Assembly: GCA_002793195.1 (NCBI GenBank)
Contig: PFPT01000008.1
Span: 17,780-81,779, forward strand
Reading direction: 5' to 3'
DNA: 64,000 nucleotides
Source: Gammaproteobacteria bacterium CG_4_10_14_0_2_um_filter_38_22
GTDB taxonomy: Bacteria > Pseudomonadota > Gammaproteobacteria > Coxiellales > Coxiellaceae
This document shows positions 19,618 to 53,808 of the stretch, in pieces. The position numbers were made by a program, and so were the translations under genes. The number at the start of each line of letters is the position of its first letter. Within the stretch, counting starts at the first letter, position 1. A model generated the notes under the pieces. The model saw only the letters and a program-made list of their open reading frames with translations. It made no database searches and was not told where the DNA came from.

Positions 19618-19689
<72 letters not shown>

Positions 19690-19763
19690 CAATCTTTTCA
19701 AGCAGTTACACCCTTTTCTGATTTTCCAAAAATGCCCTTGTGGGCGTTTTGTGGGCCATCATT

Positions 19764-20867
19764 TTAAACAACCTTTTTCAATAGCATTAATGTCGGCGTA
19801 CTTGCTTGTTTATCACAAGCTTTGTTTGCAGCCTCCAATAATTTTGACATTTCTGCTGCCGAATAATGCGTCGTGATTCGACCTGATTTATGACCAAGTA
19901 AATCTTGCCTATCTTCGTAACTCACACCCGCCGCACGCAGTCGCCGACCATAAGTGTGCTTCAAATCATGAACTCGTAATGTTGGAAGATTTGAACACTG
20001 ACGTGCTGCCTTCCATCCCGAATTCAACATCCGATCAATAGGCTTACCTCGATAAGTGAACACAAATTCTGAATCTTGACCTCGAACGGTTTCAATTACT
20101 TTTTGTGCCGTCTTATTTAAGATAATTAATCTTTCTTGTCCGTTTTTAATCAAGCGAACTCGCTCACCATTTAGCATTGCAAAAGCAGGAATAATAAAAG
20201 CACTCGCATTCAATTGTGGTATGCGAACCTCCCACTCCCACCTCAGCCGACAAACTTCCCTATCTCGACTGCCTGTATACATGGAAAATAACGCCATGTT
20301 TCTCAGGTGCTCCGGCAATGCCGCTACTAACCGATCTTCTTGCTCCCAACTTAAAGGCTGCGGAGCTCGAGTATCGTATTCGGGCAACAATTTAATTTTT
20401 GGTGCAGTAAGTATCCATGTGAGTCCATTTTCATCAATCCATTCACTCGCTGCTAAATTTAAAATGTGACGAACAATTTTCAAACCATGATTAATGGTTC
20501 GTGTTTTTCGTCCTTCTTTTTTTCTCGCTTCAATGAAGGATTGCAATGTACCCATATGCATACGATGCAATGCGATATCTTTTATATAAGGCATAATCAT
20601 TCGCAAATGGCTGGCATCGCTATCGATACTACCTTTGTCCTGATTATCCCTTAAATATTTAATCGCAGCTTCTGCAAAAACCCTTTCAGGTCGCACACCA
20701 AATATTACTGCCTGTCTTAATTCTTCGATTCGACGAGCGAGGAGAGCTTGCGCTTCTTCAAACGACTTTGTTCCAGTAGTTCCTCGAATTCGCTGACCAA
20801 AGATTTTTTTATCAATGTGCCAGCACCCACCACGTTTGATGAGGCCTGACGTTCTTTTTTGACCCAT
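19764..20867 (-). CDS. int: Tyrosine-type site-specific integrase
   Basis: 367 aa. The C-terminal catalytic region has 'TGSRDREVCRLRW', 'HDLKHTYGRRLRAAG' and 'LLGH..GRITTHY' (R..H..R..H..Y). It is adjacent and convergent to the tRNA 3' end. Confidence 0.92.
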   Translation of the reverse strand: MGQKRTSGLIKRGGCWHIDKKIFGQRIRGTTGTKSFEEAQALLARRIEELRQAVIFGVRPERVFAEAAIKYLRDNQDKGSIDSDASHLRMIMPYIKDIALHRMHMGTLQSFIEARKKEGRKTRTINHGLKIVRHILNLAASEWIDENGLTWILTAPKIKLLPEYDTRAPQPLSWEQEDRLVAALPEHLRNMALFSMYTGSRDREVCRLRWEWEVRIPQLNASAFIIPAFAMLNGERVRLIKNGQERLIILNKTAQKVIETVRGQDSEFVFTYRGKPIDRMLNSGWKAARQCSNLPTLRVHDLKHTYGRRLRAAGVSYEDRQDLLGHKSGRITTHYSAAEMSKLLEAANKACDKQASTPTLMLLKKVV

Positions 20868-41562: not shown

Positions 41563-41821
41563 ACTTCTTCTCCTCTCATGCTCATTATTTTTTACTAAAA
41601 CTAATGTGATTAAAAAATACACACAGGATTTCATCAACAGATTCTGTTAACAAGGCTGTGGAAAACTCATGATCAAACACAGTAGCTCTTGACTCAGCCA
41701 TGAATTTTATTAAATCGTTTAAAAATAACTCACTATTTTTCAATAAATTGACCTGTAAAAAAATGAAACAAATTCCATTTTTTGATAGAATCGACAAATA
41801 CAATATGTGATAGGTACTTCT

Positions 41822-42334
41822 ATGCTAAATAGCCAACAAACTTCACCCAGTGAAGCCAAAAAGTATATTGATGCTATCGATTTTTCGATGATTATCGATA
41901 AAACGGTAAAAACTACCGGCTGGAAGAAAAAAGATGTCCTGAGGATTTGTGAATATTATAAAAACTTTCTGTTTTTAAACAAAAAATATGCCCATGAACG
42001 TGGGCAGTTACCACCATCAGAAGAAATCGATGAGTTCTGGCACAATCACATTTTAGACACTAAAAAATATCACGAAGATTGCAATATCATTTTTGGTTAT
42101 TACTTGCATCACTATCCTTATTTTGGCATGGATGATCAATCCAATGAAAAAGATCTTTCTAATGCATTTGAACACATGCAGCAACTGTATAAAAAAGAGT
42201 TCGGGGATTATATTTATCGTGTTAGAAAATTAAGCCTTCTTGAAATTGCAGCCACATCTGTAGAAATCATAAAAGAATTTTTTAGAAAAAAACTATTTCT
42301 ATTAAAAGAAATTGCAAATGACAGAAAACTTTAA
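41822..42334 (+). CDS. GRDP-like (PF07173/DUF1399-type) His-rich protein
   Basis: 'EEIDEFWHNHILDTKKYHEDC....YLHHYPYFG' matches the GRDP-like core 'D.D..WH.H.L....Y..DC'. The alternative GTG start is at 41807. It overlaps the downstream transporter gene by 23 nt. Confidence 0.55.
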   Translation: MLNSQQTSPSEAKKYIDAIDFSMIIDKTVKTTGWKKKDVLRICEYYKNFLFLNKKYAHERGQLPPSEEIDEFWHNHILDTKKYHEDCNIIFGYYLHHYPYFGMDDQSNEKDLSNAFEHMQQLYKKEFGDYIYRVRKLSLLEIAATSVEIIKEFFRKKLFLLKEIANDRKL

Positions 42335-43751
42335 CCGTAAAAAAACATTACTAATTATTTGCACGACTGAGTTTTTCAGCTGCTTTTCATTTTTTGGCAC
42401 GCTAAGCTTATTGATTCTTTTCCTTATCAGGCATGCAGGAATTCCCGAGAAAATTTCTTACAGTATTTTTGGAAATTTTGCATCGTTATCTTGTGTTTCT
42501 GCCCTAATTGGTGGATTTATAGGTGGTCGTTACTTAACCTTTCGCTTTTCATCTATATTGGGATTAACTGCATATGCATTAGGTTATTTTATTTTAGCGA
42601 TAGATCAAAAAATTATTTTCATTGATGCTGGTTTAACATTAGTTGCATGTGGCGCGGGATTATTTGAACCAAACATCAGAACATTGCTTGGAATTCACTA
42701 TAATCAATGCGGATCAGAAGAAAGAAATTCTGGCTTTATTTTATTACATATTTTTAACATATGCGGACAAATCTTTGGTCCTATTACATTAACTTTTTTG
42801 AATCGTGTTTATCCATCCTTAATGTTTATAACATCAGGGATTGCCTGTGTATTAGGTGGCATCATATTTCTAAATAACTACCAAAATATCTTCAAATTAC
42901 TAGAGAACGAACATATAAAAAAACCAATTGATACTTGCAAAGGATTATCAATTGTAATCCTGCTACTTGCACTGATATTTTTTATTCTCTATCAAAGGGA
43001 TGTGAAATATATTCTTGAAGCTATTTTTACTGGGGTTTTTGTCATTCTTATTATAGCTCTACCACGAATGGAATATTTAACACGTGTTAAAATTATTACA
43101 ATCTGTTTAATTCTGACTGGGTTAGTAGCTGCAGAAATTTGTTTTCGGCAAGCTTTCGGTACAATCAATCTATTTACGTCAACTCATGTTAACAGAACTT
43201 TATTTCATGTCATGATTCCGACAGGTGTTTTTCAATCATTGGAGCCATCATTCGTTCTAATTTTATTTATATGGGTTTTAAAGCTTCGCAAAAAATTGGA
43301 AAAAAATGGGCACGGCTTGTCTTCTGGCGGTTCCATATCATTGGGTTTATTAAGCTTAAGTATCGCTTTTTGTTTTTTAATATACGGAATCTTTCTAACC
43401 ACCCAAAAAATGGCGCTTATTTGGTTAGTATTATTTTATGCTGTTATGGCTTTCGCTGAGTTATTTACCATACCTATCGCAACAGCAACCACAGCAGCTT
43501 TATCACCAAAAAATTTGCGTGGTCCAATGATGGGTATTTTCTTTTTATCTGCAGGATTGAGCTCATATTTAAGTGGTCATATTGGGGAATATATCAGTCC
43601 ACACGCTGGCAATCCCAGTCTAAGTGTTTACAAAAATTTGTTTTTAACGCTGGCTGCATTTTCTGCAATCAGCTGCGTCTGTTTGTATTTTGTTTGGAAA
43701 TACTGGAAGAAGAAAAATGATTTAATACTATCAGAAGAAACAAAAAATTGA
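42312..43751 (+). CDS. POT/PTR2-like MFS transporter with a degenerate ExxERFxYY motif
   Basis: 479 aa with ~12-14 TM helices. N-terminal 'TTEFFSCFSFFG' aligns with the POT signature 'E..ERF.YYG', but the second Glu and the Arg are replaced. Confidence 0.6.
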   Translation: MQMTENFNRKKTLLIICTTEFFSCFSFFGTLSLLILFLIRHAGIPEKISYSIFGNFASLSCVSALIGGFIGGRYLTFRFSSILGLTAYALGYFILAIDQKIIFIDAGLTLVACGAGLFEPNIRTLLGIHYNQCGSEERNSGFILLHIFNICGQIFGPITLTFLNRVYPSLMFITSGIACVLGGIIFLNNYQNIFKLLENEHIKKPIDTCKGLSIVILLLALIFFILYQRDVKYILEAIFTGVFVILIIALPRMEYLTRVKIITICLILTGLVAAEICFRQAFGTINLFTSTHVNRTLFHVMIPTGVFQSLEPSFVLILFIWVLKLRKKLEKNGHGLSSGGSISLGLLSLSIAFCFLIYGIFLTTQKMALIWLVLFYAVMAFAELFTIPIATATTAALSPKNLRGPMMGIFFLSAGLSSYLSGHIGEYISPHAGNPSLSVYKNLFLTLAAFSAISCVCLYFVWKYWKKKNDLILSEETKN

Positions 43752-44205: not shown

Positions 44206-44760
44206 TTAAGGCAGTAACCTTGCAATATAGTGCTCATCAAAATACTTTCCGTTGATGTACAACGCTTTTTTACGAATGCCTTCCACTTCATAGCCTAACG
44301 TTTTATATAAATGCAATGCCCTGTCATTTTCAATATGTACTTCTGATTCTATACGTTTGAAGTTAGCTGAAATCGCAAATTTTTCAAGCAGTTCAAGCAT
44401 TCGATGACCCAAACCATGACCCCAATTAATTTGTCGAATCATTAATCCAAATCTACCAATATGACGCAGCCATGGATGTCCTTCTCGTATTGCGTGAAAA
44501 ACTAAAAGCCCATGCATTTCTCCAGATTCTAAAAATGCTCCTAACTCAAGCATTCTTGGATTTGCTTCCGACAACACCAATCGTTTTTCTATTGAATCTG
44601 CAGTATCTATATTAAAACCACCTAATTTGGTAAAACTGGTTTCCGCTGCAATTGTTTTTTCAAAATCAGGAAAAACAGCGGCATCTTTTGGTGTGCAATG
44701 CCTTAAAAAAATAGCTTTACCATTCTTGGGTTTAAAGATTTCCATATCAATTTTTGCCAT
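44206..44760 (-). CDS. GNAT-family N-acetyltransferase (RimJ/RimL-like)
   Basis: 184 aa. The acetyl-CoA binding region is 'QINWGHGLGHRMLE' (Q/R-x-x-G-x-G/A) with the 'ENDRALHLYKTLGYEVEG' motif. Confidence 0.85.
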   Translation of the reverse strand: MAKIDMEIFKPKNGKAIFLRHCTPKDAAVFPDFEKTIAAETSFTKLGGFNIDTADSIEKRLVLSEANPRMLELGAFLESGEMHGLLVFHAIREGHPWLRHIGRFGLMIRQINWGHGLGHRMLELLEKFAISANFKRIESEVHIENDRALHLYKTLGYEVEGIRKKALYINGKYFDEHYIARLLP

Positions 44761-44814: not shown

Positions 44815-45492
44815 CTAAAAATATTTTTTGAACGACTTTGCCGTTACCTGAATCGCAAGTGCAAACAATATGGCAGAGATCACCAGTATCCATTCATTCA
44901 CACGTAATGAAACTGGCAATACTAAATCAGCAAAAACACTGAAAATTAAGCTCAACATGATTAAAGGTTTCATATTATGGTAGATCAACGCACTTTCTCG
45001 ACCCGCTGAAAAACGGCGAATTTTTCGTAGCATTAATCCATCTATTAATCCTGCAAATCCAAGCAGCAAAAACAAGTAACACCAATGCGCAAATAAATAT
45101 AACCGCACTACCAATAATTTTGCTGCAAGCAATACAGCAGCAATCATTAAATTTACATGCGATAAAATCGTATATTCATATTGTGTCTTTGATAATAGTA
45201 ATAGAGGATTTTTCAATATGATTTTATTTGGAAAAACAGCCATCCAATGATTAACAATCAATAACGCATTAGGTGTTATTAGCGTCGACAGAGTTTGATA
45301 GCTTTCTTCTAATAATTTCTGAAATGTTACAAAACCTGATATTCCATGTAACGTCACAAGAATAACCGCTATCAGAACACATCCAAAACACCCTGCGACT
45401 ATCCAAATAAAAAAACGTATGAATAACCAAATCCATAAATCAAGCAATGTTGGTGATTTTTGCGTTTTATGTGCCTTTTCTGCTTTTTTCAT
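44815..45492 (-). CDS. ICE membrane protein (TIGR03747-like)
   Basis: 225 aa and polytopic, directly downstream of traD as in PFGI-1-type ICEs. Confidence 0.5.
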   Translation of the reverse strand: MKKAEKAHKTQKSPTLLDLWIWLFIRFFIWIVAGCFGCVLIAVILVTLHGISGFVTFQKLLEESYQTLSTLITPNALLIVNHWMAVFPNKIILKNPLLLLSKTQYEYTILSHVNLMIAAVLLAAKLLVVRLYLFAHWCYLFLLLGFAGLIDGLMLRKIRRFSAGRESALIYHNMKPLIMLSLIFSVFADLVLPVSLRVNEWILVISAILFALAIQVTAKSFKKYF

Positions 45493-45503
45493 ATTTGACC
45501 ACC

Positions 45504-47546
45504 CTACACAGTACGCAATTCCTCAACCATTTTTTCAACACTTTCAGACATCAAAGCCATATCATTTTTAGGTAATGGAAAACGCACCTTGTACAACTGA
45601 CCGCCATCAAGCAAACAAAATGCCTGCCCTTTTGGCAACTGCATCAAATCATCTGATGAAATTAGCGGCACTTCTGTTACGGTAATGCGATCTTCTGTAT
45701 GACTTGAAAAATGAGTAGATTCCGTTAGTGTCGCTGCATCATTTGCAGAGGATACTTGAATAACATCTCGCACCTGCACACGTTGCGGTAACTTATCAGT
45801 TAATAATCTTGCCGTACTTTCTTCCAGGACACGAAGACAAATTAAATTATTAAAATTACCAAAAACCTGATTAGCTTTTGCCTGACTTCCCAGTCGCGCT
45901 AACACATCTGAACCTGTTTGTGTTGCAACAGTAAGCTGAAGACCTGCGCCACCACCTTTATTTGCAAGCGGAATAAACTCATCACCGACCAATTCATTAA
46001 ATTCATCGCTATACAGATTAATTTTATTAAATGTTTTTTTACTTAACGAATCAGCAATACCATCCTGAATGCCAAATTTATAAATCTGACCCACTGTTGA
46101 GCACAAATCAGCAAACATACTATTACCAACGGCAGAACTGACTGTGCTATCTGATAAAGCATCCAATCCGACATAAACAATTTTTTTGCCGCGAATAACT
46201 TGCAGCCAATCAAAAATCAAACGTTCATCATCAAAATCAAAATAGTTCGGTGAAATAAGCTCCGCAATTCTCCCACTTGTTAGCTTTGAAAATAATGGCG
46301 ATAGTGAAGCAGTTATTTTTTGAAAATACGTTTGATCGTAATTAAAAATTGCTTTTAATCCATCATAAACTGGATTATTGATATTTAATTTATCCATATA
46401 ATTGACGAGCGCAATCATAAAAGGTTTTCGTGATTTCAAATGCATCGGCAAATTTTTAACATCAATCATTTTTGCATCGATTTCTACAATCTGCTGCCAT
46501 TCCGGATTGATATCTATTAAACATTTAGCACAGAATTCCAACATTAATGAATCAATATTTAAAATATATTTATCCATGTCCTTATAATTTGGTTTTTTAC
46601 CCAATGCCTCTAACGCATTAGCGATGATATTAACAAAACGCCATGCAAACTCTTTAAAAGCAGCCGATTCACCACTGCTTGGCAGTTGATTTGCCACCCG
46701 ATTGGCTACTTCAGTAATGCGTGAAAAATTACCGATGGGATTATAACGCGCGGAATGTGATGGATAGCCCAAATGAAAAACAATCACATCAGAAGCACGA
46801 TTAGATTTTTTTGCTTCAAAACAAACGCGTTTTAATAAATCCATATCTCCCTTGGGATCGAATACAATCACAGCAGAATCATTACGTCGTATATCACTAG
46901 CAATCATCAGTTCTAATAATCGTGTTTTACCTACCCTGGTCGTTCCTAAAATCATCGTGTGACCGACACGCTCTGAAAGCGACAAAAAGATATTTTTTTC
47001 ATTGAGTTCAATACCATGTATGGCTGGATTACCACCAACAGGAGGCAATGGACGAACAGAATTCCATCGGCTTTGGCTCGATAAAAAATTAATTAATGGT
47101 TTTAATTTAAATGAGTGCTCATATTTCAATTCAAATTGTCTTGCGCGCTGATACCATTTTCCTGGTTTCAAATAATTTTCATATGTACTTTGCTTTAAAT
47201 CCCGCAATCGTTGCGTATGTTTCGCTTCCCATTTAAATCCTTTTCCCAAAAAAAGTTTGTGCTGACTAATTGGCAGCTCATCAGAACTTGCCGCATAAAA
47301 TGACAATCGTTTCAAATTATTTTGATAACTAATAACTCGATATCCTTGAAAAAATCTCACCACTCCAAGAAAAAAAAGCCCTATTGCAATAAAAGCAGTT
47401 ATTTGTGTACTCAATAAAAAAATAGATGATTGCATATAAATAAATATCGATACAATTAAACAAATCAAACTTGACCACCATTCAACCGGCGGGCGCAGCA
47501 AACTTTCTAATGGATATTTTTTCATACAATTATTATTACTGCTCAA
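45504..47546 (-). CDS. traD: Conjugative coupling protein TraD (PFGI-1 class, VirD4-like)
   Basis: 680 aa: two N-terminal TM helices, Walker A 'LGTTRVGKTRL', and Walker B-like 'AVIVFDPKGD'. Confidence 0.85.
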   Translation of the reverse strand: MSSNNNCMKKYPLESLLRPPVEWWSSLICLIVSIFIYMQSSIFLLSTQITAFIAIGLFFLGVVRFFQGYRVISYQNNLKRLSFYAASSDELPISQHKLFLGKGFKWEAKHTQRLRDLKQSTYENYLKPGKWYQRARQFELKYEHSFKLKPLINFLSSQSRWNSVRPLPPVGGNPAIHGIELNEKNIFLSLSERVGHTMILGTTRVGKTRLLELMIASDIRRNDSAVIVFDPKGDMDLLKRVCFEAKKSNRASDVIVFHLGYPSHSARYNPIGNFSRITEVANRVANQLPSSGESAAFKEFAWRFVNIIANALEALGKKPNYKDMDKYILNIDSLMLEFCAKCLIDINPEWQQIVEIDAKMIDVKNLPMHLKSRKPFMIALVNYMDKLNINNPVYDGLKAIFNYDQTYFQKITASLSPLFSKLTSGRIAELISPNYFDFDDERLIFDWLQVIRGKKIVYVGLDALSDSTVSSAVGNSMFADLCSTVGQIYKFGIQDGIADSLSKKTFNKINLYSDEFNELVGDEFIPLANKGGGAGLQLTVATQTGSDVLARLGSQAKANQVFGNFNNLICLRVLEESTARLLTDKLPQRVQVRDVIQVSSANDAATLTESTHFSSHTEDRITVTEVPLISSDDLMQLPKGQAFCLLDGGQLYKVRFPLPKNDMALMSESVEKMVEELRTV

Positions 47547-48153
47547 TCAATTTATCGGATATCAAGACTGGGTAATGCGTTATATGCAAAGCAGTTGCAA
47601 TAGAATTTGCTGGCACTGCTAATAATGGCAAGTTTGGAAATGCATTTTTCAGTTCTGAAAAATCTTGCTGAGATGATATGTTAACAACAAATCCAGTAGC
47701 ATTTAATTTTTGCAGCCTTTTTGCATAACGATTCAACCACTGCATCGAGAGATCATCACAACCAACAATGAAAAATGGATGAGGCAGTACAATATTAATA
47801 TGATTTTCATATACTTTTCCTGGCGTTAACAAATTTGACTGTATTGGAAATACTGGAATTAAAATTGCTGTCTTAGGTTTAGCAAAATTAATTTCATCTT
47901 CTAATTGCGGTGTTAAATTTTCATTCATTGCATTCACTGTTTCATGCGAATCAGTTTTCATTTTCTGAAATGAAGCTACTTTTTCAGGATTACTTTGCAA
48001 ATAATCAATAATAAGGCGCGTTGCATGAGTTGAATGAACGACAAAGCTTAAGTTCTGTGCTTGAGCTTTTTCGGCTAAAAATATGAGAAAAATTGCCGAA
48101 ATCAAAGGTAAAAATTGTCGTTTTAGATGATAACTATATTTTGTGGAACTCAT
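47536..48153 (-). CDS. ICE periplasmic protein (TIGR03765/PFL_4695-like)
   Basis: 205 aa with a signal peptide. It overlaps the traD start and is in the canonical position. Confidence 0.45.
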   Translation of the reverse strand: MSSTKYSYHLKRQFLPLISAIFLIFLAEKAQAQNLSFVVHSTHATRLIIDYLQSNPEKVASFQKMKTDSHETVNAMNENLTPQLEDEINFAKPKTAILIPVFPIQSNLLTPGKVYENHINIVLPHPFFIVGCDDLSMQWLNRYAKRLQKLNATGFVVNISSQQDFSELKNAFPNLPLLAVPANSIATALHITHYPVLISDKLIEQ

Positions 48154-48177
48154 GCAACGCTAACTCGGTTTTAAATA

Positions 48178-48870
48178 TTAATGAATCATCAGTTGTTCAT
48201 AGGGTGATAAATCAAGCCACAGATTGTTTGGATAATAAGCAACCATCACCGTTCCGCCTTGAATTTTTGATATGATTTGAGGTGCTAGTTTTTGATTCAA
48301 TCCAAAACATCCATAAGTATTACCCACGCGATTATATTTTTTAGCAAAATGATGCGAGACATACCAAGCAGGATGCACAACAATATCGCGACGATAAGCA
48401 TTGCTATTAAATCCTGCGTCTAAGCCATGAACTCGCATCGATTGACCCGCAATGCCATAATATATTTGCCCAGTAAGATAAACACCGATGCTGCTTTCAT
48501 GACTATCAAACTGATTTGAAAAACGCTTTGCAGCGTTAAGGCCTGTATTTTTTCCTTGAGCCACGTAAGTAAAATATTTTGTATCTCCATTTTTGATATT
48601 AAAAACCCACAAACGTCGCTTATTGGAAGGTCTATTAAAGTCAACAATTGTAAGCAACCGACGATTATCTGCTCCCATAGAGCGCAAATGATCATAGGCA
48701 CGCAAACCCGCAAATAAAACTTCTGATCTTAGTTGCGGATTATGCTTTTCAATTTTTTGAATGACAGGCACGCGCATCATTAAATTTTTATTACTTTCTG
48801 ATGCAAATGCATTTTGATAAATAAAAATTACAGTGGTTAATATCACTGCTATCAATAAACGATTCTGCAT
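48178..48870 (-). CDS. YkuD_2-type L,D-transpeptidase catalytic-domain protein
   Basis: Signal peptide. 'LLTIVDFNRPSNKRRLWVFN', 'FSNQFDSHESSIGVY', 'VVHPAWYVS' and 'GNTYGCFGL' match the His/Cys catalytic layout of the murein L,D-transpeptidase family. Confidence 0.8.
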   Translation of the reverse strand: MQNRLLIAVILTTVIFIYQNAFASESNKNLMMRVPVIQKIEKHNPQLRSEVLFAGLRAYDHLRSMGADNRRLLTIVDFNRPSNKRRLWVFNIKNGDTKYFTYVAQGKNTGLNAAKRFSNQFDSHESSIGVYLTGQIYYGIAGQSMRVHGLDAGFNSNAYRRDIVVHPAWYVSHHFAKKYNRVGNTYGCFGLNQKLAPQIISKIQGGTVMVAYYPNNLWLDLSPYEQLMIH

Positions 48871-48913
48871 GACAAAACCTCTTACAATTTATCTCAATAT
48901 AATTTTTAAGGTG

Positions 48914-49702
48914 TTATAAAACAGATGACAAAGTTATCGGCTGGAAACGATTGTTATGCACAATTCCAACAAAAGGTAAATTCACTGGCTTTCCCTTTGT
49001 TAACGACGAAAATCGATCATTGCCAAAGTTTAACGTGATTTGCTTATTAACAAGCTGATGCGGAATAGACATATCTGCAGCCCATTGTTCAATATTTTTT
49101 TTAGTTACATTTTTACCAACAAAATAAATATCCAATACTGTGTTTGGAGTAGATTGAATATTTTTCAATAAATTTTTATATGCAAAACTTCCAAGCGGTG
49201 TATTCACACCTAAAAATAACCATACCCTATCACCTGCTTTTAAAATGTCACTTTGATTCGCTTGATTTAACGGCATAATCGGTTTTTCATCAGGATACAA
49301 ATTCCTATAAGCTTGAGAATATATTTTATTAAATAGTAATTCTTGCGTGACGCGCGAATGCATATTACGTGCTTGAACTTCAGCATATTGCATCATTTTT
49401 TCAGGATTAGTTGTATTGAGTGCCAACACCTCTGGCGGATCAAGATTTTTATACCAATTACCGCTAGGGCTGTTTTTCATCAACCAAAGATAATGTTGAA
49501 AATTATTTGTTGTTAATCCCCACATCTTGGCATTACTTTCTAGTGCATTACTTTGATCCGATGAAGATTTAATAATTGTGTTTTGAGTTAGTTTAGGATC
49601 AATCGACTGTAATTGATCCGCTAAAACTGATGTGCAAAATGCATTAAACGCTAAAAATGATATGTAAAATAATTTTTTTGAGCTGCTGTTTTTATTTTTC
49701 AT
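48914..49702 (-). CDS. ICE periplasmic protein (TIGR03759/PFL_4693-like)
   Basis: Signal peptide. 'WGLTTNNFQHYLWLM......W...LDPPEVLAL......YAEVQAR......EL.F...Y..AYRNLYP' resembles the family pattern as I recall it. Confidence 0.55.
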   Translation of the reverse strand: MKNKNSSSKKLFYISFLAFNAFCTSVLADQLQSIDPKLTQNTIIKSSSDQSNALESNAKMWGLTTNNFQHYLWLMKNSPSGNWYKNLDPPEVLALNTTNPEKMMQYAEVQARNMHSRVTQELLFNKIYSQAYRNLYPDEKPIMPLNQANQSDILKAGDRVWLFLGVNTPLGSFAYKNLLKNIQSTPNTVLDIYFVGKNVTKKNIEQWAADMSIPHQLVNKQITLNFGNDRFSSLTKGKPVNLPFVGIVHNNRFQPITLSSVL

Positions 49703-49949
49703 AATCGTTTACTCCGTGACAAACACGACCATTTGTCATCTGATAAGTTCTATCGTAGGAATCTGATTGCAAATTAGTGATCAGTACCGTGGATGCCATA
49801 CATGCTTGCACATCTGATTTTTGAACGGGCTCATAACCAAATTTGTGCATCATTCCGGCACACCCTGACAACAGACTGAATGAAGCAAATATGAAAGCAA
49901 TCAAAAGTGTTAACTTGACACACCGAACATTAAAATAAAAAAATCGCAT
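49692..49949 (-). CDS. Small lipoprotein (unknown function)
   Basis: 85 aa with lipobox 'LLSGC'. It overlaps the downstream gene by 11 nt. Confidence 0.5.
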   Translation of the reverse strand: MRFFYFNVRCVKLTLLIAFIFASFSLLSGCAGMMHKFGYEPVQKSDVQACMASTVLITNLQSDSYDRTYQMTNGRVCHGVNDYEK

Positions 49950-49960
49950 TGGAATCCCCG

Positions 49961-50731
49961 TTAATTACCCTGTAATTTCACATAAAAAACACGACTATCG
50001 GTTTGCTTACTAAATACAGCGCTTTGATTTGCAAAACTCATTTTTTGTAGAACCCATCCACGGCACGCAGGACAAATTTCATTAGTAGTTAATGTGGTTT
50101 GATTACCATCTATATCAATGATTGCTCTCATTCCATCACTAAATCCTTGCACTGCGACTAAGCGAAAATATTTTTGTACTGTAGTTGGATCAACCCATGT
50201 TTTCTCAGCTGTTTGCGCAATGACCTTTTGAACAGAATCCTGCAAATTATTCATTTTTCCAAGCAATGTGCTATTTGGTTCTGAAACGGTCTGCTGCAGT
50301 TTTTGCACATCGTTTTTAGAAGCAAGCAGCGAAATTCGAGACTGCATGATCTGCAGTTCAACTTGCAGTGCTTGCATCTTTTTACTTGAAGATTGCTTTA
50401 ATCGATCAAGTTGGTTTTGCAATATTTTTTCATCGCTTTTTTTATCATTTACAATATTCAAAGGTTGAATATTTGAAGATTGTTTTTGAATTTTGACTTC
50501 AGGTTTTTCAAACCTAACTGCATAATTATTTTGTAATTCGTGATGCTTATATGAATTATGGAAACCAAAAAACAAAATAAGAGTTAAAAAGGAAAATAAA
50601 AACGCAGACAATAGAGCAACAAAGTATCGTTTTTTAAAATTCGGCTTAATCCAACGATATAGAAATTTTATGTTTTTATATAAAAAATTCTTTATTTTTA
50701 ATAAAGCATCCTCGTTAATTAACTTCATCAT
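49961..50731 (-). CDS. Bitopic membrane protein with a coiled-coil and a PilP-like C-terminal beta domain
   Basis: 256 aa with one TM helix and a Q/L-rich coiled-coil. The C-terminus 'FRLVAVQGFSDGMRAIIDIDGNQTTLTTNEI....GWVLQKM....AVF' resembles PilP-type domains. Low certainty. Confidence 0.4.
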   Translation of the reverse strand: MMKLINEDALLKIKNFLYKNIKFLYRWIKPNFKKRYFVALLSAFLFSFLTLILFFGFHNSYKHHELQNNYAVRFEKPEVKIQKQSSNIQPLNIVNDKKSDEKILQNQLDRLKQSSSKKMQALQVELQIMQSRISLLASKNDVQKLQQTVSEPNSTLLGKMNNLQDSVQKVIAQTAEKTWVDPTTVQKYFRLVAVQGFSDGMRAIIDIDGNQTTLTTNEICPACRGWVLQKMSFANQSAVFSKQTDSRVFYVKLQGN

Positions 50732-50761
50732 ATAAATACCTTTTTAAAAAAATTAGTCATC

Positions 50762-51082
50762 TTAATGAAATACTGGAAATGTAACTTCATGTTTACGAAT
50801 TGGATAAAAAAATTGCGCATCTTCTAATTTAATTAAGAGTTGATCAATTGGAAGCGATGATAAAAATCCAGGCAACCTAGATTGCTTTTCAAATTTCTCA
50901 ATTTGATTCACCAAATACTGTTTGTTATAGCCATATTTTTTTGCCCTAAAAACCAAGTAATAAAGAAAACGTAATATGTATAGCATTACGTCGTATCCAA
51001 CATAGTTTTCTAACCTATTAAATCCAGGCGCTATTTTTGGCACTGACACTGCATAGTTAGTGTTTGCTATCATCGTTAACAT
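50762..51082 (-). CDS. Hypothetical protein
   Basis: 106-aa ORF packed between the PilL-like gene and the coiled-coil protein gene. I recognise no family. Confidence 0.4.
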   Translation of the reverse strand: MLTMIANTNYAVSVPKIAPGFNRLENYVGYDVMLYILRFLYYLVFRAKKYGYNKQYLVNQIEKFEKQSRLPGFLSSLPIDQLLIKLEDAQFFYPIRKHEVTFPVFH

Positions 51083-51085
51083 TTT

Positions 51086-51571
51086 TTAGTCCTCTTCTTG
51101 ATTCGTAAAGTTATTTGTTGTCACATTTTGGTATATTTTCGAATACGCTGGTTTCAACTTAAAACCAATTAAACGATTCACGGGGTCAACAAGCAGATAA
51201 AACATATTGCCGGATAAAGTTTGCAACCCTTGCTTTAGTGTCATTGGACCAAATTCTCTATCAACCTCAGGTAACAGCTGATTTAACATTTGCGTAGTGG
51301 CTTCATCGAGCTGATCGTTAGCACATAAGTGATAACCTCTGAATCGCAAGAGAAATTGAATAGCCTGCTTAATCGTTAAAATATTTTGTGGAAATTTAAT
51401 TTGTATTTGCTGATTTAAAAGATTTATCTGATCATTCTTAGGTTTTTCTGGTACCGATAAATAACGTCCCACGTTAATGTTATTGGCAACATTTACTGCT
51501 GCTTCACAAGATGCAGACAGTAATAATATTGCGCTCAAGGCATAGCACTTGAGCTGCATATGCTTTTTCAT
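51086..51571 (-). CDS. PilL-like lipoprotein (TIGR03748-type, first gene of the T4SS operon)
   Basis: The ATG at 51571 has a GAGGA RBS. Lipobox 'LLSASC'. 'VGRYLSV', 'TIKQAIQFLLRFRGYHL' and 'PMTLKQGLQTLSG' resemble PilL N-terminal domains of GI-type ICEs. Confidence 0.55.
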   Translation of the reverse strand: MKKHMQLKCYALSAILLLSASCEAAVNVANNINVGRYLSVPEKPKNDQINLLNQQIQIKFPQNILTIKQAIQFLLRFRGYHLCANDQLDEATTQMLNQLLPEVDREFGPMTLKQGLQTLSGNMFYLLVDPVNRLIGFKLKPAYSKIYQNVTTNNFTNQEED

Positions 51572-51632
51572 AAGCAATCCTCAATTTGTTTTTTTTAATA
51601 ATTAGAAAATAAAAGCGATAGGGATTTTTTGG

Positions 51633-51667
51633 CAAAAAAAAGCCCCAGGGATAAATCCGATGGGGCT
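51633..51667 (-). terminator. Intrinsic terminator inside the leader, ~60 nt upstream of the PilL-like start
   Basis: On the minus strand: AGCCCCA-13 nt-TGGGGCT immediately followed by TTTTTTTT. Confidence 0.55.
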
Positions 51668-51807
51668 TGCGTAAGGTTTTTTGAAATTACCAGAGCATCT
51701 TACAAAAAAATAAATAAAATATCAAGTATTTTTGTAAAAAAATATTTATTTATTATTTTTTGTTTTATATTTTTTTATCTGTTTTTAAGGTGTTTTAAGT
51801 AATTTTA

Positions 51808-51834
51808 ATTATACTGATCAAAATACTTTTTCAA
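51808..51834 (-). promoter_or_regulatory. Candidate promoter for the T4SS leader
   Basis: On the minus strand: TTGAAA (51834-51829), a 15-nt spacer, then consensus TATAAT (51813-51808). It is embedded in a ~240-nt extremely AT-rich spacer. The spacer length is suboptimal. Confidence 0.3.
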
Positions 51835-51905
51835 GTTTGCACTACTTTTTAAGCAGTTTTAAATTCTTTTATTTTATTTGATTTTTTTGTTTTAGAGTTA
51901 CAAGA

Positions 51906-51935
51906 AATAAAAAAGCACTTAATTTTAAAGCGCTT
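51906..51935 (-). terminator. Intrinsic terminator after the Q-like gene
   Basis: On the minus strand: AAGCGCTT-TAAAATT-AAGTGCTT (one G-U pair) followed by TTTTTAT. Confidence 0.45.
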
Positions 51936-51973
51936 TTGCGAAACATTTATTTTAAGTGGAAGGATCGATAGCG

Positions 51974-52363
51974 CTACAAAATTTCTGATAACCACGTTTG
52001 TGCGCATTTTAAATAATGGTAATAAGTCCGTTTTGGCAACGCTGTTAATTGAATACGTTCAATGATATCTTTTTCTTGCATTGTATAGTGCACACGAATA
52101 ATTTTAGCCCATTCGGGTTTTCCAGCACCTTCTGGCTTATCCATTGCAAGCTGCTCAACAAGATCATTCATCTCTTCTGCTTTTTCATTAGTCGGTATGA
52201 GTATTTTTGCTGTTCCTTGAATAATCATCCCACCTTCTTCTTGTAATTTTGCTAGCAATGTTCGGTTTGAATATCCAAGCCCCATAGTAGTGATTCGATA
52301 ACACCAATTACCCCACTCTGTAAGGCGTTTTTTGGTATTAAGCAGGTCAGTATCATAAACCAT
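51974..52363 (-). CDS. Phage antitermination protein Q-like regulator (QuuD/PF06530-like)
   Basis: 129 aa with a GAGGAA RBS. It has 'RLTEWGNWC' near the N-terminus, a central 'EKAEEMNDLVEQL', and a C-terminal 'LPKRTYYHYLKCAQTWLSEIL'. This is the same architecture as small lambdoid Q proteins such as QuuD, as I recall them. Confidence 0.5.
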   Translation of the reverse strand: MVYDTDLLNTKKRLTEWGNWCYRITTMGLGYSNRTLLAKLQEEGGMIIQGTAKILIPTNEKAEEMNDLVEQLAMDKPEGAGKPEWAKIIRVHYTMQEKDIIERIQLTALPKRTYYHYLKCAQTWLSEIL

Positions 52364-52399
52364 TACAATTTCCTCGTTGATATAAAATTAGATTGATTT

Positions 52400-52415
52400 T
52401 GACATAATTATGTCA
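52400..52415. promoter_or_regulatory. Perfect 16-bp palindromic operator in the divergent Q-like/XRE promoter region
   Basis: TGACATAATTATGTCA. It overlaps the TTGACA -35 (52399-52404) of the plus-strand XRE promoter (-10 TATTCT at 52421-52426) and an ATAATT -10 candidate of the minus-strand Q-like promoter. Confidence 0.5.
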
Positions 52416-52466
52416 TATCATATTCTTGTGATCAATATACGGATAGCAAAAGAACAAGGATTCATA

Positions 52467-52967
52467 ATGAAAAGAAATTATGCGCTTGGCGCTAGAATCA
52501 AAGCTTCAATGAAAGCCGCGGGCTTTGCAACCGCGAAAGAGTTTTGCGAAAAATTTAACGTTCCCTATTTAACATTTGCGCAACATACGCAAGGTCGCCG
52601 CCATCCTACTTCTGATTTTTTAAAGCTGTATAGCAAAGCTTTTGGTGTTACAAGTGCGTGGATTGAAACTGGCGAAGGCAGCCCTTTATCTAATAGAAAA
52701 CAAACAAAAAACAAACAAATTAAGACAGCACTTAAACATGAAATGAATAAAATTCAAACCGATGTCATGTTAAACCCAGAGCTATTAACGAAAATTTTAG
52801 AAGAAGTCATTAAGTTAAAAATTAAATACAAATTAGGCGAAAAAAAATGCGCCGATATTACTGTAAATTTATATACACAGATTATAAAAATTTCCAGTGA
52901 AAAAATGCTTCAAAAAAATATGGTTTCCACCTTCATCAAAACATATGAGGCTACATTAAAGGATTAA
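52467..52967 (+). CDS. XRE/cI-family HTH transcriptional regulator
   Basis: The start at 52467 has an AAGGA RBS. The N-terminal HTH is 'LGARIKASMKAAGFATAKEFCEKFNVPYLTFAQHTQGRRHP'. The C-terminal ~90 aa are of unknown function. Confidence 0.75.
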   Translation: MKRNYALGARIKASMKAAGFATAKEFCEKFNVPYLTFAQHTQGRRHPTSDFLKLYSKAFGVTSAWIETGEGSPLSNRKQTKNKQIKTALKHEMNKIQTDVMLNPELLTKILEEVIKLKIKYKLGEKKCADITVNLYTQIIKISSEKMLQKNMVSTFIKTYEATLKD

Positions 52968-53010
52968 TGCAGCCACTATCATTTACGCTTTACGACTTTT
53001 TGGTATCTAA

Positions 53011-53808
53011 CTATATTAAACCCATATAAGCACCACCATCCACTTGCATCATGAGTCCACTTACATAGCTCGCTGCGGGTGAAACTAAAAATACTACAAC
53101 ATTTGCAAATTCTTGTGGTGTTCCCATTCGCTTCAATGGGATATTTTTCACCACCTCTTTTTCACACACTTCATAAGTACTATTTAATTTTTCAGCACGA
53201 TTATTTAATAAATAAATCGTTCGATCCGTTGCTGTCCATCCAGGCAAAATAGAATTAACGCGTATTCCATACACACCCAGTTCTTGCGACAACGTTTTTG
53301 TTAAACCAATTACCGCTGGACGAATAACATTTGACATAAACAAATTTGGGATGGGTTCTTTTGCTGCAGTGCTCGTGATTGTCAAAATACTGGGAGCTTC
53401 GCTTTTTTTAAGATGAGGCAATGCTGCCTGTACAAGATACACAACACTCATCAGCGTTAATTGAAAACCTTTGTCATACATTTCTAATGCAATCGTTTCA
53501 AACGTTCCTGTTGGCGGACCACCTGCATTCGTAACCACAATGTCAATCTGTGAAAATTTTTCTACTGCAGCAGAAACAAACTGCGTTATTTGCGCATGAT
53601 TGGTCACATCACAGGAAAAAACAAGGAAATTTTTTTCATCTGCCAATTTTGATAACTCAACATGCACTGCTGCATTTCGTTTTTCGTCACGCCCACAAAT
53701 AGCAACCTTAGCACCTTCAGCCAGCAATTGTTTTGCAGTTGCCAATCCCAAACCATCAGTTGCGGCTGCCAAAACCGCGACTTTATTTTCTAAATTTAAA
53801 TTCATCAC
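53011..53808 (-). CDS. Short-chain dehydrogenase/reductase (SDR)
   Basis: 'AVLAAATDGLGLA' Rossmann motif, 'NAGG', and the catalytic region 'S...........NV.RPAV'. 265 aa. Confidence 0.85.
   Translation of the reverse strand: MMNLNLENKVAVLAAATDGLGLATAKQLLAEGAKVAICGRDEKRNAAVHVELSKLADEKNFLVFSCDVTNHAQITQFVSAAVEKFSQIDIVVTNAGGPPTGTFETIALEMYDKGFQLTLMSVVYLVQAALPHLKKSEAPSILTITSTAAKEPIPNLFMSNVIRPAVIGLTKTLSQELGVYGIRVNSILPGWTATDRTIYLLNNRAEKLNSTYEVCEKEVVKNIPLKRMGTPQEFANVVVFLVSPAASYVSGLMMQVDGGAYMGLI

Follow-up and report, generated by a model that had tools for sequence, protein, structure and literature searches.

What opens the transfer operon of an integrative and conjugative element (ICE), and at which step of transcription does the control act? 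The control of transfer has been worked out in just a handful of ICE families and, to our knowledge, all described regulators of the PFGI-1/ICEclc/PAPI-1 class act on initiation, the regulators of ICEclc being MfsR, TciR, BisR and BisDC. The question is raised anew by a locus in a 64,000-nucleotide stretch of contig PFPT01000008.1 (the window, by which we mean the whole stretch of DNA that was analysed) from Gammaproteobacteria bacterium CG_4_10_14_0_2_um_filter_38_22, an uncultured host known as a metagenome-assembled genome (MAG). The conjugation system of the window is that of a PFGI-1/ICEclc-class ICE, with a GI-type type IV secretion system (T4SS). Ahead of its first gene, pilL, lie a short leader with its own promoter and terminator, a gene for a 129-aa protein reminiscent of phage Q antiterminators, and a divergent gene for a repressor of the XRE type. 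An earlier note on this DNA had compared the arrangement with the late-gene switch of phage lambda, and every feature that it lists is present, either where it was placed or a few bases away. With a probability of roughly 0.6, we propose that the locus is a two-tier, phage-derived switch, in which the XRE protein represses a member of the Q21 family of antiterminators and the latter in turn carries RNA polymerase past the leader terminator into the pilL/T4SS operon.

A leader with a predicted terminator in front of pilL

The gene downstream of the leader has the PilL-like identity that the earlier note had assigned to it: the minus-strand gene at 51086-51571, whose ATG at 51571 follows a GAGGA sequence, matches TIGR03748 (E 5e-27), encodes the PilL2 protein of PFGI-1-class ICEs and is the first gene of the conjugation operon. 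The hairpin described in front of it is likewise present. Its arms, AGCCCCA..TGGGGCT (51667-51641), run into eight U residues (51641-51634), forming an intrinsic terminator (T2, 51634-51667, minus strand) that ends 62 nt before the pilL ATG. The promoter feeding this terminator, however, is not the one first suggested. The TATAAT at 51813-51808, previously taken for its -10 sequence, is separated by 15 nt from its best -35, falls within the core that divides two repeat arrays and is absent from relatives, whereas the conserved leader promoter, TTGATA-17-TAAGAT, occupies 51725-51697 of the minus strand (-35, 51725-51720; -10, 51702-51697), with a predicted start at G51690/51691. Directly upstream of its -35 sequence, conserved columns form a T-run/A-run block (51727-51751, minus strand), which we take to resemble a full UP element. 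The first transcribed bases fall within a conserved minus-strand box, GTAATTTCAAAAAA (51677-51690), holding, 7 nt downstream of the -10, a second -10-like hexamer, TAATTT (51689-51684), which is a candidate sigma-dependent pause element. Neither this hexamer nor the two arrays of 10-bp repeats described below had been listed before. Since T2 starts at about +23, the terminated leader RNA should measure about 56 nt from the predicted start, and not the 150-170 nt that were expected from the misplaced promoter. The leader folds at -17 kcal/mol, with a z score of -2.7.

The anatomy of this module is widely conserved. Among the related loci that were compared with the window, labelled L001-L022, the module recurs in 13 loci with protein identities of 30-85%. 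Alignment of the DNA upstream of pilL (12-13 loci; consensus -35 TTGnnn, consensus -10 TAnnnT) defines a leader unit that runs, in the 13 loci, from the -35 through exactly 17 nt to the -10, a non-conserved spacer of 5-7 nt, TAnnTT, a GC hairpin and a U-run. The spacer between the -10 and the second hexamer is 7 nt in 11 of the 13. TAnnTT is found 6-7 nt after the -10 in 12/13 loci, whereas its frequency in the neighbouring intergenic DNA is 0.012 per position, and the columns of TAAnTT(C) rank with the most conserved ones of the entire region. The T2 hairpins themselves vary by lineage (GCCCCA.., GCCCTAGAG.., GGGCTCC.., CCTGC..), each folding well and each followed by a T-run. Their RNAalifold covariation is weak and their loops align poorly, so that the argument for T2 conservation is based upon each locus folding on its own rather than upon covariation. 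A covariance model built from 12 loci nonetheless recovered the module of the held-out locus L022 (E 8e-5), and a search with the covariance model returned no further copy of the module from the window and its ICE.

In the relatives compared, the pilL/T4SS operon has no conserved way in other than through T2, and nothing from T2 to the pilL ATG is conserved as a promoter. A candidate of this kind, TTGCCA-18-TATTTT at 51635-51606, was rejected, as only the closest relative shares the match. Two other interpretations of the leader were likewise discarded. An extended -10 is not claimed for the leader promoter, because the TG abuts the hexamer directly instead of standing one base upstream of it, and a riboswitch or attenuator would have only about 22 nt before the hairpin, with nothing returned by Rfam.

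The order of genes around the leader is similarly constant. In L001, L003/L006, L004, L005, L008, L009, L013, L015 and L020, a divergent XRE gene is followed by the Q-like gene, an intergenic region of 400-740 nt, and then pilL with the T4SS genes, while the DNA on the XRE side consists of unrelated cargo in each of these loci. There are informative departures from this order. L022 is exceptional in that a co-directional HTH_17 gene, and not a divergent XRE gene, stands upstream of the Q-like gene as its partner. In L015, a 1.45-kb gene on the opposite strand (3488-4939, with a weak Trypsin_2 match) separates the Q-like gene from intact arrays and an intact leader, which fits a trans-acting protein. 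In L021 (4001-4883), a divergent Q-like gene and the same promoter/-10-like/terminator module drive an 80-aa AlpA/Xis-like helix-turn-helix (HTH) gene in place of pilL, near a tRNA-like contig end. The presence of the module on a different gene suggests that the cassette is portable between element types. More distant members of the protein family occupy the Q position of prophage-like contigs, following Cro/YdaS genes and DnaA/IstB-like replication genes and preceding a long gap.

The Q-like protein and its relatives

The 129-aa protein is encoded on the minus strand at 51974-52363, behind a GAGGA ribosome-binding site, and combines an N-terminal RLxEWGxW motif and a flexible but conserved middle with a C-terminal HTH resembling sigma region 4. 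It is identical to a hypothetical protein of the groundwater MAG 'Gammaproteobacteria bacterium CG_4_10_14_0_8_um_filter', and its relatives derive from MAGs of the Coxiellaceae/Legionellales. Individually, the sequence yields little: the NCBIfam scan returned only NF051483, the 'PA0613 family' (weak, E 3e-4), and the PHROGs scan only a family of unknown function. A tblastn search with it against phages and plasmids gave no match, and neither did two divergent relatives when run against plasmids. Its 17 close homologues (48-85% identity) share the invariant motifs RLxxWGxWC, GLGY, PxNExAEE, R(I/V)HYT and TYY, and a profile built from them (A1), when run against 1.8 billion representative sequences, retrieved 209 proteins of 110-160 aa. 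Two further profiles were derived from 136 aligned family members (A2) and from the 19 relatives nearest to, but outside, the ICE clade (A3; A1-profile E <= 6e-19).

It is at the level of the family that the relationship to phage antiterminators becomes evident. PF06530 (Phage_antitermQ), which corresponds to the Q21 family (PMC9388147), is matched by 55 of the 136 family members from end to end (positions 4-115 of 118) and by 12 of the 19 near relatives, with a best E value of 4.8e-8. As the near relatives show the match as well, the link to the Q21 family is independent of the most distant members. The 26-bit cut-off of PF06530 is reached by a single relative (26.4 bits). In profile-profile alignment by hhalign, A2 matched Q933W with a probability of 95.5% (E 1.5e-8) over 125 collinear columns, in which RLxEWGxW pairs with vLERWGAW and which span the N-terminal two-thirds of the protein as well as the HTH. 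With A3, the probability was 65% (E 6e-5), whereas the control alignment of A2 with lambda Q gave 0.6%. Q933W is itself a PF06530 protein (E 1.4e-50) and matches the solved Q21 chains 6P18 and 6JNX. On these profile comparisons, the 129-aa protein is distantly homologous to the Q21/Q933W antiterminators, falls below the Pfam threshold and is probably best viewed as a sister clade, which would widen the Q21 family well past the reach of Pfam. Other models were matched within the family too, namely NF051483 by 86 of the 136 members and ECF-sigma/region 4 models by 19-37 of them, the latter through the C-terminal half.

The namesake of NF051483, PA0613, is an uncharacterised gene located between ptrB and the holin gene in the pyocin cluster of P. 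aeruginosa. PA0613 may be a relic of a Q21-type antiterminator, to judge from these family matches, and the PA0613-family links suggest that many small island genes now called 'hypothetical' encode antiterminators.

The predicted structure is only compatible with Q21 membership. An AlphaFold2 (AF2) model built from a deep alignment has six helices and a mean predicted local distance difference test score (pLDDT) of 84, with low confidence confined to residues 29-59, which are highly conserved. Q21 carries a sigma-region-4 fold (bioRxiv 10.1101/651190), and its exit-channel torus is formed from the linker region between H1 and H3.

The divergent repressor and the repeat arrays

The plus-strand gene facing the Q-like gene (52467-52967) encodes the cI/XRE-type HTH protein that the earlier note had recognised, although its start is most likely the ATG at 52467, which follows AAGGA, and not that at 52410. 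The resulting protein has 166 aa, as compared with 166-176 aa in its homologues. It matches PHROG 4, 'transcriptional repressor' (E 3e-10), as well as Phage_CI_repr of Pfam (E 5e-4, just under threshold). Its C-terminal 90 aa or so, which carry no known domain, match nothing in Pfam or NCBIfam, and Peptidase_S24 is not among the matches of the protein; induction through RecA-stimulated self-cleavage is therefore unlikely. A divergent XRE gene partners the Q-like gene in L001, L003, L004, L005, L008, L009, L010, L013, L015 and L020. As a separate observation, a hairpin at 52949-52974 overlaps the XRE stop codon, just downstream of a convergent SDR gene (53011-53808), and could be a terminator shared by the two genes and working in both directions.

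Between the divergent genes lies the perfect 16-bp palindrome TGACATAATTATGTCA (52400-52415; a single copy in the window), which is presumed to be the XRE operator. That it overlaps both divergent promoters was claimed previously and stands, but the promoter elements had to be reassigned. The presumed XRE promoter is TTGATT-17-TATCAT (52393-52421, plus strand), with the palindrome filling its spacer, and the presumed promoter of the Q-like gene is TTGATC-17-CATAAT (52407-52435, minus strand), with its -10 inside the palindrome. Both arrangements recur in relatives, where the XRE-ward promoter reads TTGAT(T/A)-17-TAT(C/A)(A/C)T around the palindrome and the Q-ward promoter reads TTGA(C/T)(T/C/A)-17-CATAAT, again with CATAAT inside it. 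The palindrome has a 14-bp core, GACATAATTATGTC, that does not vary among the 11 related loci examined and sits at a fixed spot of the divergent intergenic region, while the Q-like proteins of those loci are only 48-85% identical; such conservation is far beyond chance. Because the operator lies within both promoters, one bound dimer should close both of them, and because 3 bp separate one -10 hexamer from the other, the divergent promoters should exclude each other. A divergent HTH gene combined with a palindrome that overlaps both promoters is, as far as its layout indicates, a repressor-operator switch, to which we infer that the XRE protein binds.

Downstream of the Q-like gene, its transcript is closed by an intrinsic terminator of its own (T1, 51911-51937, minus strand, -10.1 kcal/mol), located within a few bases of where it had been placed before, and most relatives have an equivalent hairpin and T-run at this position. 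The spacer that follows has a GC content of 24% and contains two arrays of direct repeats on the minus strand. Array A (51847-51896) consists of about five tandem 10-bp repeats of the unit nnnTT[A/C]AAAn and is crisp in L004, L009 and L020, where 5-6 units follow one another at a distance of exactly 10 bp; array B (51762-51809) also consists of about five tandem 10-bp repeats. All copies of both arrays conform to this unit and have the same orientation. They flank a conserved core of 37 bp (51810-51846, minus strand), within which the TATAAT dismissed above is itself not conserved.

Which protein would bind these arrays? The XRE protein was considered and ruled out, since operator and repeat unit vary independently of each other. 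In L008, GTACAAG takes the place of the usual repeat unit and, in parallel, the box past the start site shifts to GTACAAAC, with the XRE operator unchanged, whereas in L020 the operator differs and the repeat unit does not. Q21 binds tandem direct repeats, which makes the Q-like protein the obvious candidate. Its predicted recognition helix tracks the changes in the sites, albeit among very few lineages: TYY(R/H)YL occurs with TTCAAA or TAAnTTC, TYYRRL with TACAAG, and IYYKLL with TATATTG in the absence of arrays. A single copy resembling the repeat unit also lies just after the second hexamer, and the spacer of the leader promoter is T-rich with short repeats but has no clear 8-bp tandem sites. 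Arrays are lacking in L021 and L022. We tentatively extend the proposal in two directions, and regard this extension as clearly less probable than the switch itself: the Q21-type cassette might be a portable 'late switch' used beyond phages, for ICE conjugation here and for an excisionase-like gene in the L021 island, and the Q-like protein might cooperatively bind the two phased arrays, a layer that the ICE lineage would have gained and that would then function as a loading platform, a threshold-setting sink or a memory device. If true, cooperative binding to arrays would be a mode of Q-DNA interaction unseen in phage systems.

Proposed mechanism, precedents and the surrounding element

Based upon these features, we infer a sequence of repressor binding, polymerase pausing, loading of the Q-like protein and antitermination. 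In the first tier, the XRE protein would bind the one palindromic operator in the overlapping divergent promoters, thereby silencing the Q-like gene and probably its own gene too. In the second tier, the pilL/T4SS operon would be read from the strong and probably constitutive leader promoter with its UP-like block, and the second -10-like hexamer, at +2 to +7, would make sigma70-RNA polymerase pause close to the promoter. In the absence of the Q-like protein, transcription would stop at the hairpin and U8 of T2, yielding only the 56-nt RNA and leaving the T4SS genes silent. Once repression is lifted, the Q21-family protein would load onto the paused polymerase, render it resistant to terminators and allow it to enter pilL-traD; later terminators, such as those at 40911-40891 and 21203-21183, may be read through as well. 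If true, this would extend textbook phage antitermination to conjugation and account for a 7-30-kb transfer operon with internal terminators that is fully off and then fully on, all by means of a compact system comprising a 129-aa protein, a site of about 130 bp and a 56-nt RNA.

Several results weigh against this proposal. The earlier note had assigned the 129-aa protein to the phage Q antiterminators, and while this is upheld as distant homology to Q21/Q933W by way of family profiles, the direct Pfam scan of the protein gave no PF06530 match at E <= 1 but only noise. The A1 profile of the 17 close homologues is shallow and falls short as well, aligning with Q933W at a probability of only 1.8%. 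Searches of PDB sequences with the single sequence and two profiles returned nothing relevant to the Q-like protein, and Foldseek searches of the PDB with two AF2 models gave no significant match and did not retrieve Q21; the insignificant neighbours were ECF sigma/anti-sigma complexes and SigA region 4, and those in BFVD were small unnamed or sigma-like phage proteins. At the level of DNA, no canonical Q21-type Q-binding element could be identified upstream of the pause element, the arrays, at 40-170 bp upstream of the -35, are in a non-canonical place for such an element, and the second hexamer of L008, TACAAA, is a poor -10.

Alternatively, the Q-like protein could be an ordinary DNA-binding activator or repressor of the sigma-region-4 type, which acts on the 10-bp arrays to alter initiation, be it at the leader promoter or at one not yet recognised, with the 56-nt transcript being a stand-alone small RNA or noise. 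Tandem direct repeats do adjoin the Q-like gene, the XRE operator of L008 stays the same while its repeat unit and post-start box change together, the C-terminal HTH is akin to sigma region 4, and structure searches do not single out Q21. We nevertheless consider such a regulator unlikely. The arrays are absent from L021 and L022, yet both loci keep the Q-like gene together with the promoter/-10-like/terminator module, and the leader promoter already looks strong enough to make an activator needless. Initiation control also leaves unexplained why T2 should come as early as 23 nt into the transcript and be followed by no conserved promoter, while homology to Q933W extends over the N-terminal two-thirds, beyond the HTH, and no known small RNA in Rfam matches the leader.

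A further explanation grants T2 a role but removes it from the control of the Q-like protein. T2 would then be an insulator or attenuator, with read-through set by a host factor (NusG/RfaH-type proteins, Rho or growth state) or by some other ICE protein, and the Q-like protein would serve another target. There is precedent for other means of antitermination in conjugative elements, i.e. conAn of pLS20 (PMC8191782) and Tn916 (PMC11658703), and the pilL2 promoter of PAPI-1 is under the control of TprA/NdpA2/MvaT (PMC8565334). Still, in every lineage seen, including L021 with its different target gene, the leader module is inherited along with the Q-like gene, and the module is single-copy per element. 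Neither a NusG paralogue nor an ops-like element came to notice, although no systematic search for them was made. On balance, we judge this uncoupling of T2 from the Q-like protein to be quite improbable. Least probable of all, in our estimation, is that the AT-rich array region is chiefly a partition site or an accessory site of a transfer origin, beside which the promoter and terminator are incidental. The arrays resemble R1 parC and the StbA-binding repeats (stbDRs) of R388, where a core has on either side about five direct repeats with a period of roughly 10-11 bp, much as the arrays here surround their conserved core. The likeness is limited to the arrays. No cognate ParR or StbA gene, nor any other partition gene, is adjacent to them, and a site of this sort leaves unexplained the promoter/-10-like/terminator unit, which is kept in loci without arrays. 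A role in partition or transfer could, in any case, coexist with the two-tier switch.

Among known systems, the two-tier switch is closest to the Q21/Q933W cassette (6P18, 6JNX). What defines a Q-dependent cassette is the succession of a Q gene, a promoter, a -10-like pause element among the first bases to be transcribed, and a terminator. The ICE locus presents the same protein family at the profile level and the same order of parts, with a strong promoter, a -10-like element at the very beginning of the transcript and, at about +25, a terminator. The annotation of 933W pR' displays the same compact geometry, in which the -10 is followed by 'qut' and then by a terminator at roughly +25 to +49. 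The differences are equally instructive. Whereas Q21 and Q933W feed lysis and morphogenesis genes, the cassette described here belongs to an ICE and leads into pilL and the T4SS genes. Its Q gene possesses its own terminator and a dedicated, presumably XRE-controlled promoter, while phage Q genes form the end of a delayed-early operon. It has large 2 x 5 repeat arrays upstream, unlike the phage cassettes, and lacks an identifiable binding element at the canonical place. The locus would accordingly be a Q21-type cassette that has moved into an ICE and is equipped with a dedicated repressor tier and repeat arrays.

With lambda Q/PR'/6S RNA/tR' (PF03589), the locus would share the logic of a constitutive promoter, a -10-like sigma-dependent pause, a short terminated RNA and processive antitermination. 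The lambda Q protein belongs to an unrelated family, as the hhalign control indicates, and the lambda leader measures 194 nt in comparison to the 56 nt predicted here; lambda Q binds an asymmetric site as a monomer (PMC9388147). The AlpR/AlpA system of P. aeruginosa (PMC7969949, PMC9371919) similarly pairs a repressor with a small antiterminator, with promoter-embedded loading, terminator bypass and a non-phage operon as its target. AlpA, according to its authors, has no sequence similarity to Q proteins, and it targets lysis genes, while AlpR is LexA-like and responsive to DNA damage, in contrast to the XRE repressor with its missing S24 domain. Processive antitermination of a long conjugation operon is also known from conAn1/conAn2 of pLS20 and from the antiterminator RNA of Tn916 (PMC8191782, PMC11658703), but these are Gram-positive systems with unrelated components (protein plus RNA, or RNA alone) that are encoded within the operon and do not involve Q-type loading at a pause.

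Finally, PAPI-1 with TprA/NdpA2/MvaT (PMC8565334), ICEclc and Legionella lvrRABC (PMC3864950) belong to the same ICE/GI-T4SS class and have their control point upstream of pilL/lgiA, as in the window. Their regulators are ribbon-helix-helix, nucleoid-associated, LysR/FlhDC-like or CsrA-type proteins that act on initiation or translation, and none has been described as Q-type. The earlier note knew of no Q-type antitermination in ICEs of this family, and in the literature that we searched, whose coverage is incomplete, no description of a Q-family protein controlling an ICE turned up either. In the LGI-T4SS of Legionella, the genes lvrR-lvrA-lvrB-lvrC precede lgiA/pilL (PMC3864950). LvrB, at 116-130 aa, falls into the same size class as the Q-like protein, the comparison being one of size only (PMC3864950 supplement).

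The assignment of the conjugation system to the PFGI-1/ICEclc class is based upon PilL2, the TraD coupling protein (E 6e-260), several TIGR037xx ICE proteins and a tyrosine recombinase beside a tRNA gene. Downstream of pilL, the minus-strand T4SS genes (44815-51082) include TIGR03759, PFL_4695, TraD and TIGR03747; RAQPRD is also among the minus-strand genes of the system. The recombinase gene (19764-20867) abuts tRNA-Asn (19618-19690), and this junction probably marks an end of the element. No att repeat of the tRNA-Asn end, at a length of 14 nt or more, occurs elsewhere in the window, so that the opposite end could not be placed.

The reach of the transfer transcript is likely to be shorter than once envisaged. 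Continuous transcription over 32 kb had been proposed, but plus-strand cargo genes at 41807-43751, a 175-aa open reading frame (ORF) and a gene for a POT-family peptide transporter, interrupt the minus-strand run and thus break the single transcription unit. It is for this reason that read-through as far as xis/int, also put forward before, is doubtful. The additional terminators reported at the distal end do exist as terminator-like intergenic hairpins on the minus strand, although only the one at 21203-21183 is strong, those at 22138-22120, 23405-23388 and 40911-40891 being weak. Among the genes that share the direction of the T4SS genes is a cargo GNAT acetyltransferase gene (44206-44760, minus strand). 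Nearby on the same strand are two small paralogous ORFs rich in lysine, at 44170-44099 and 43911-43834 (MKKLKLMLKNKFKKASAAHCLAV and MKTLIKSIKNRFKTAKAAACVPFTN), of which at least the second has a Shine-Dalgarno-like GGAGAG upstream.

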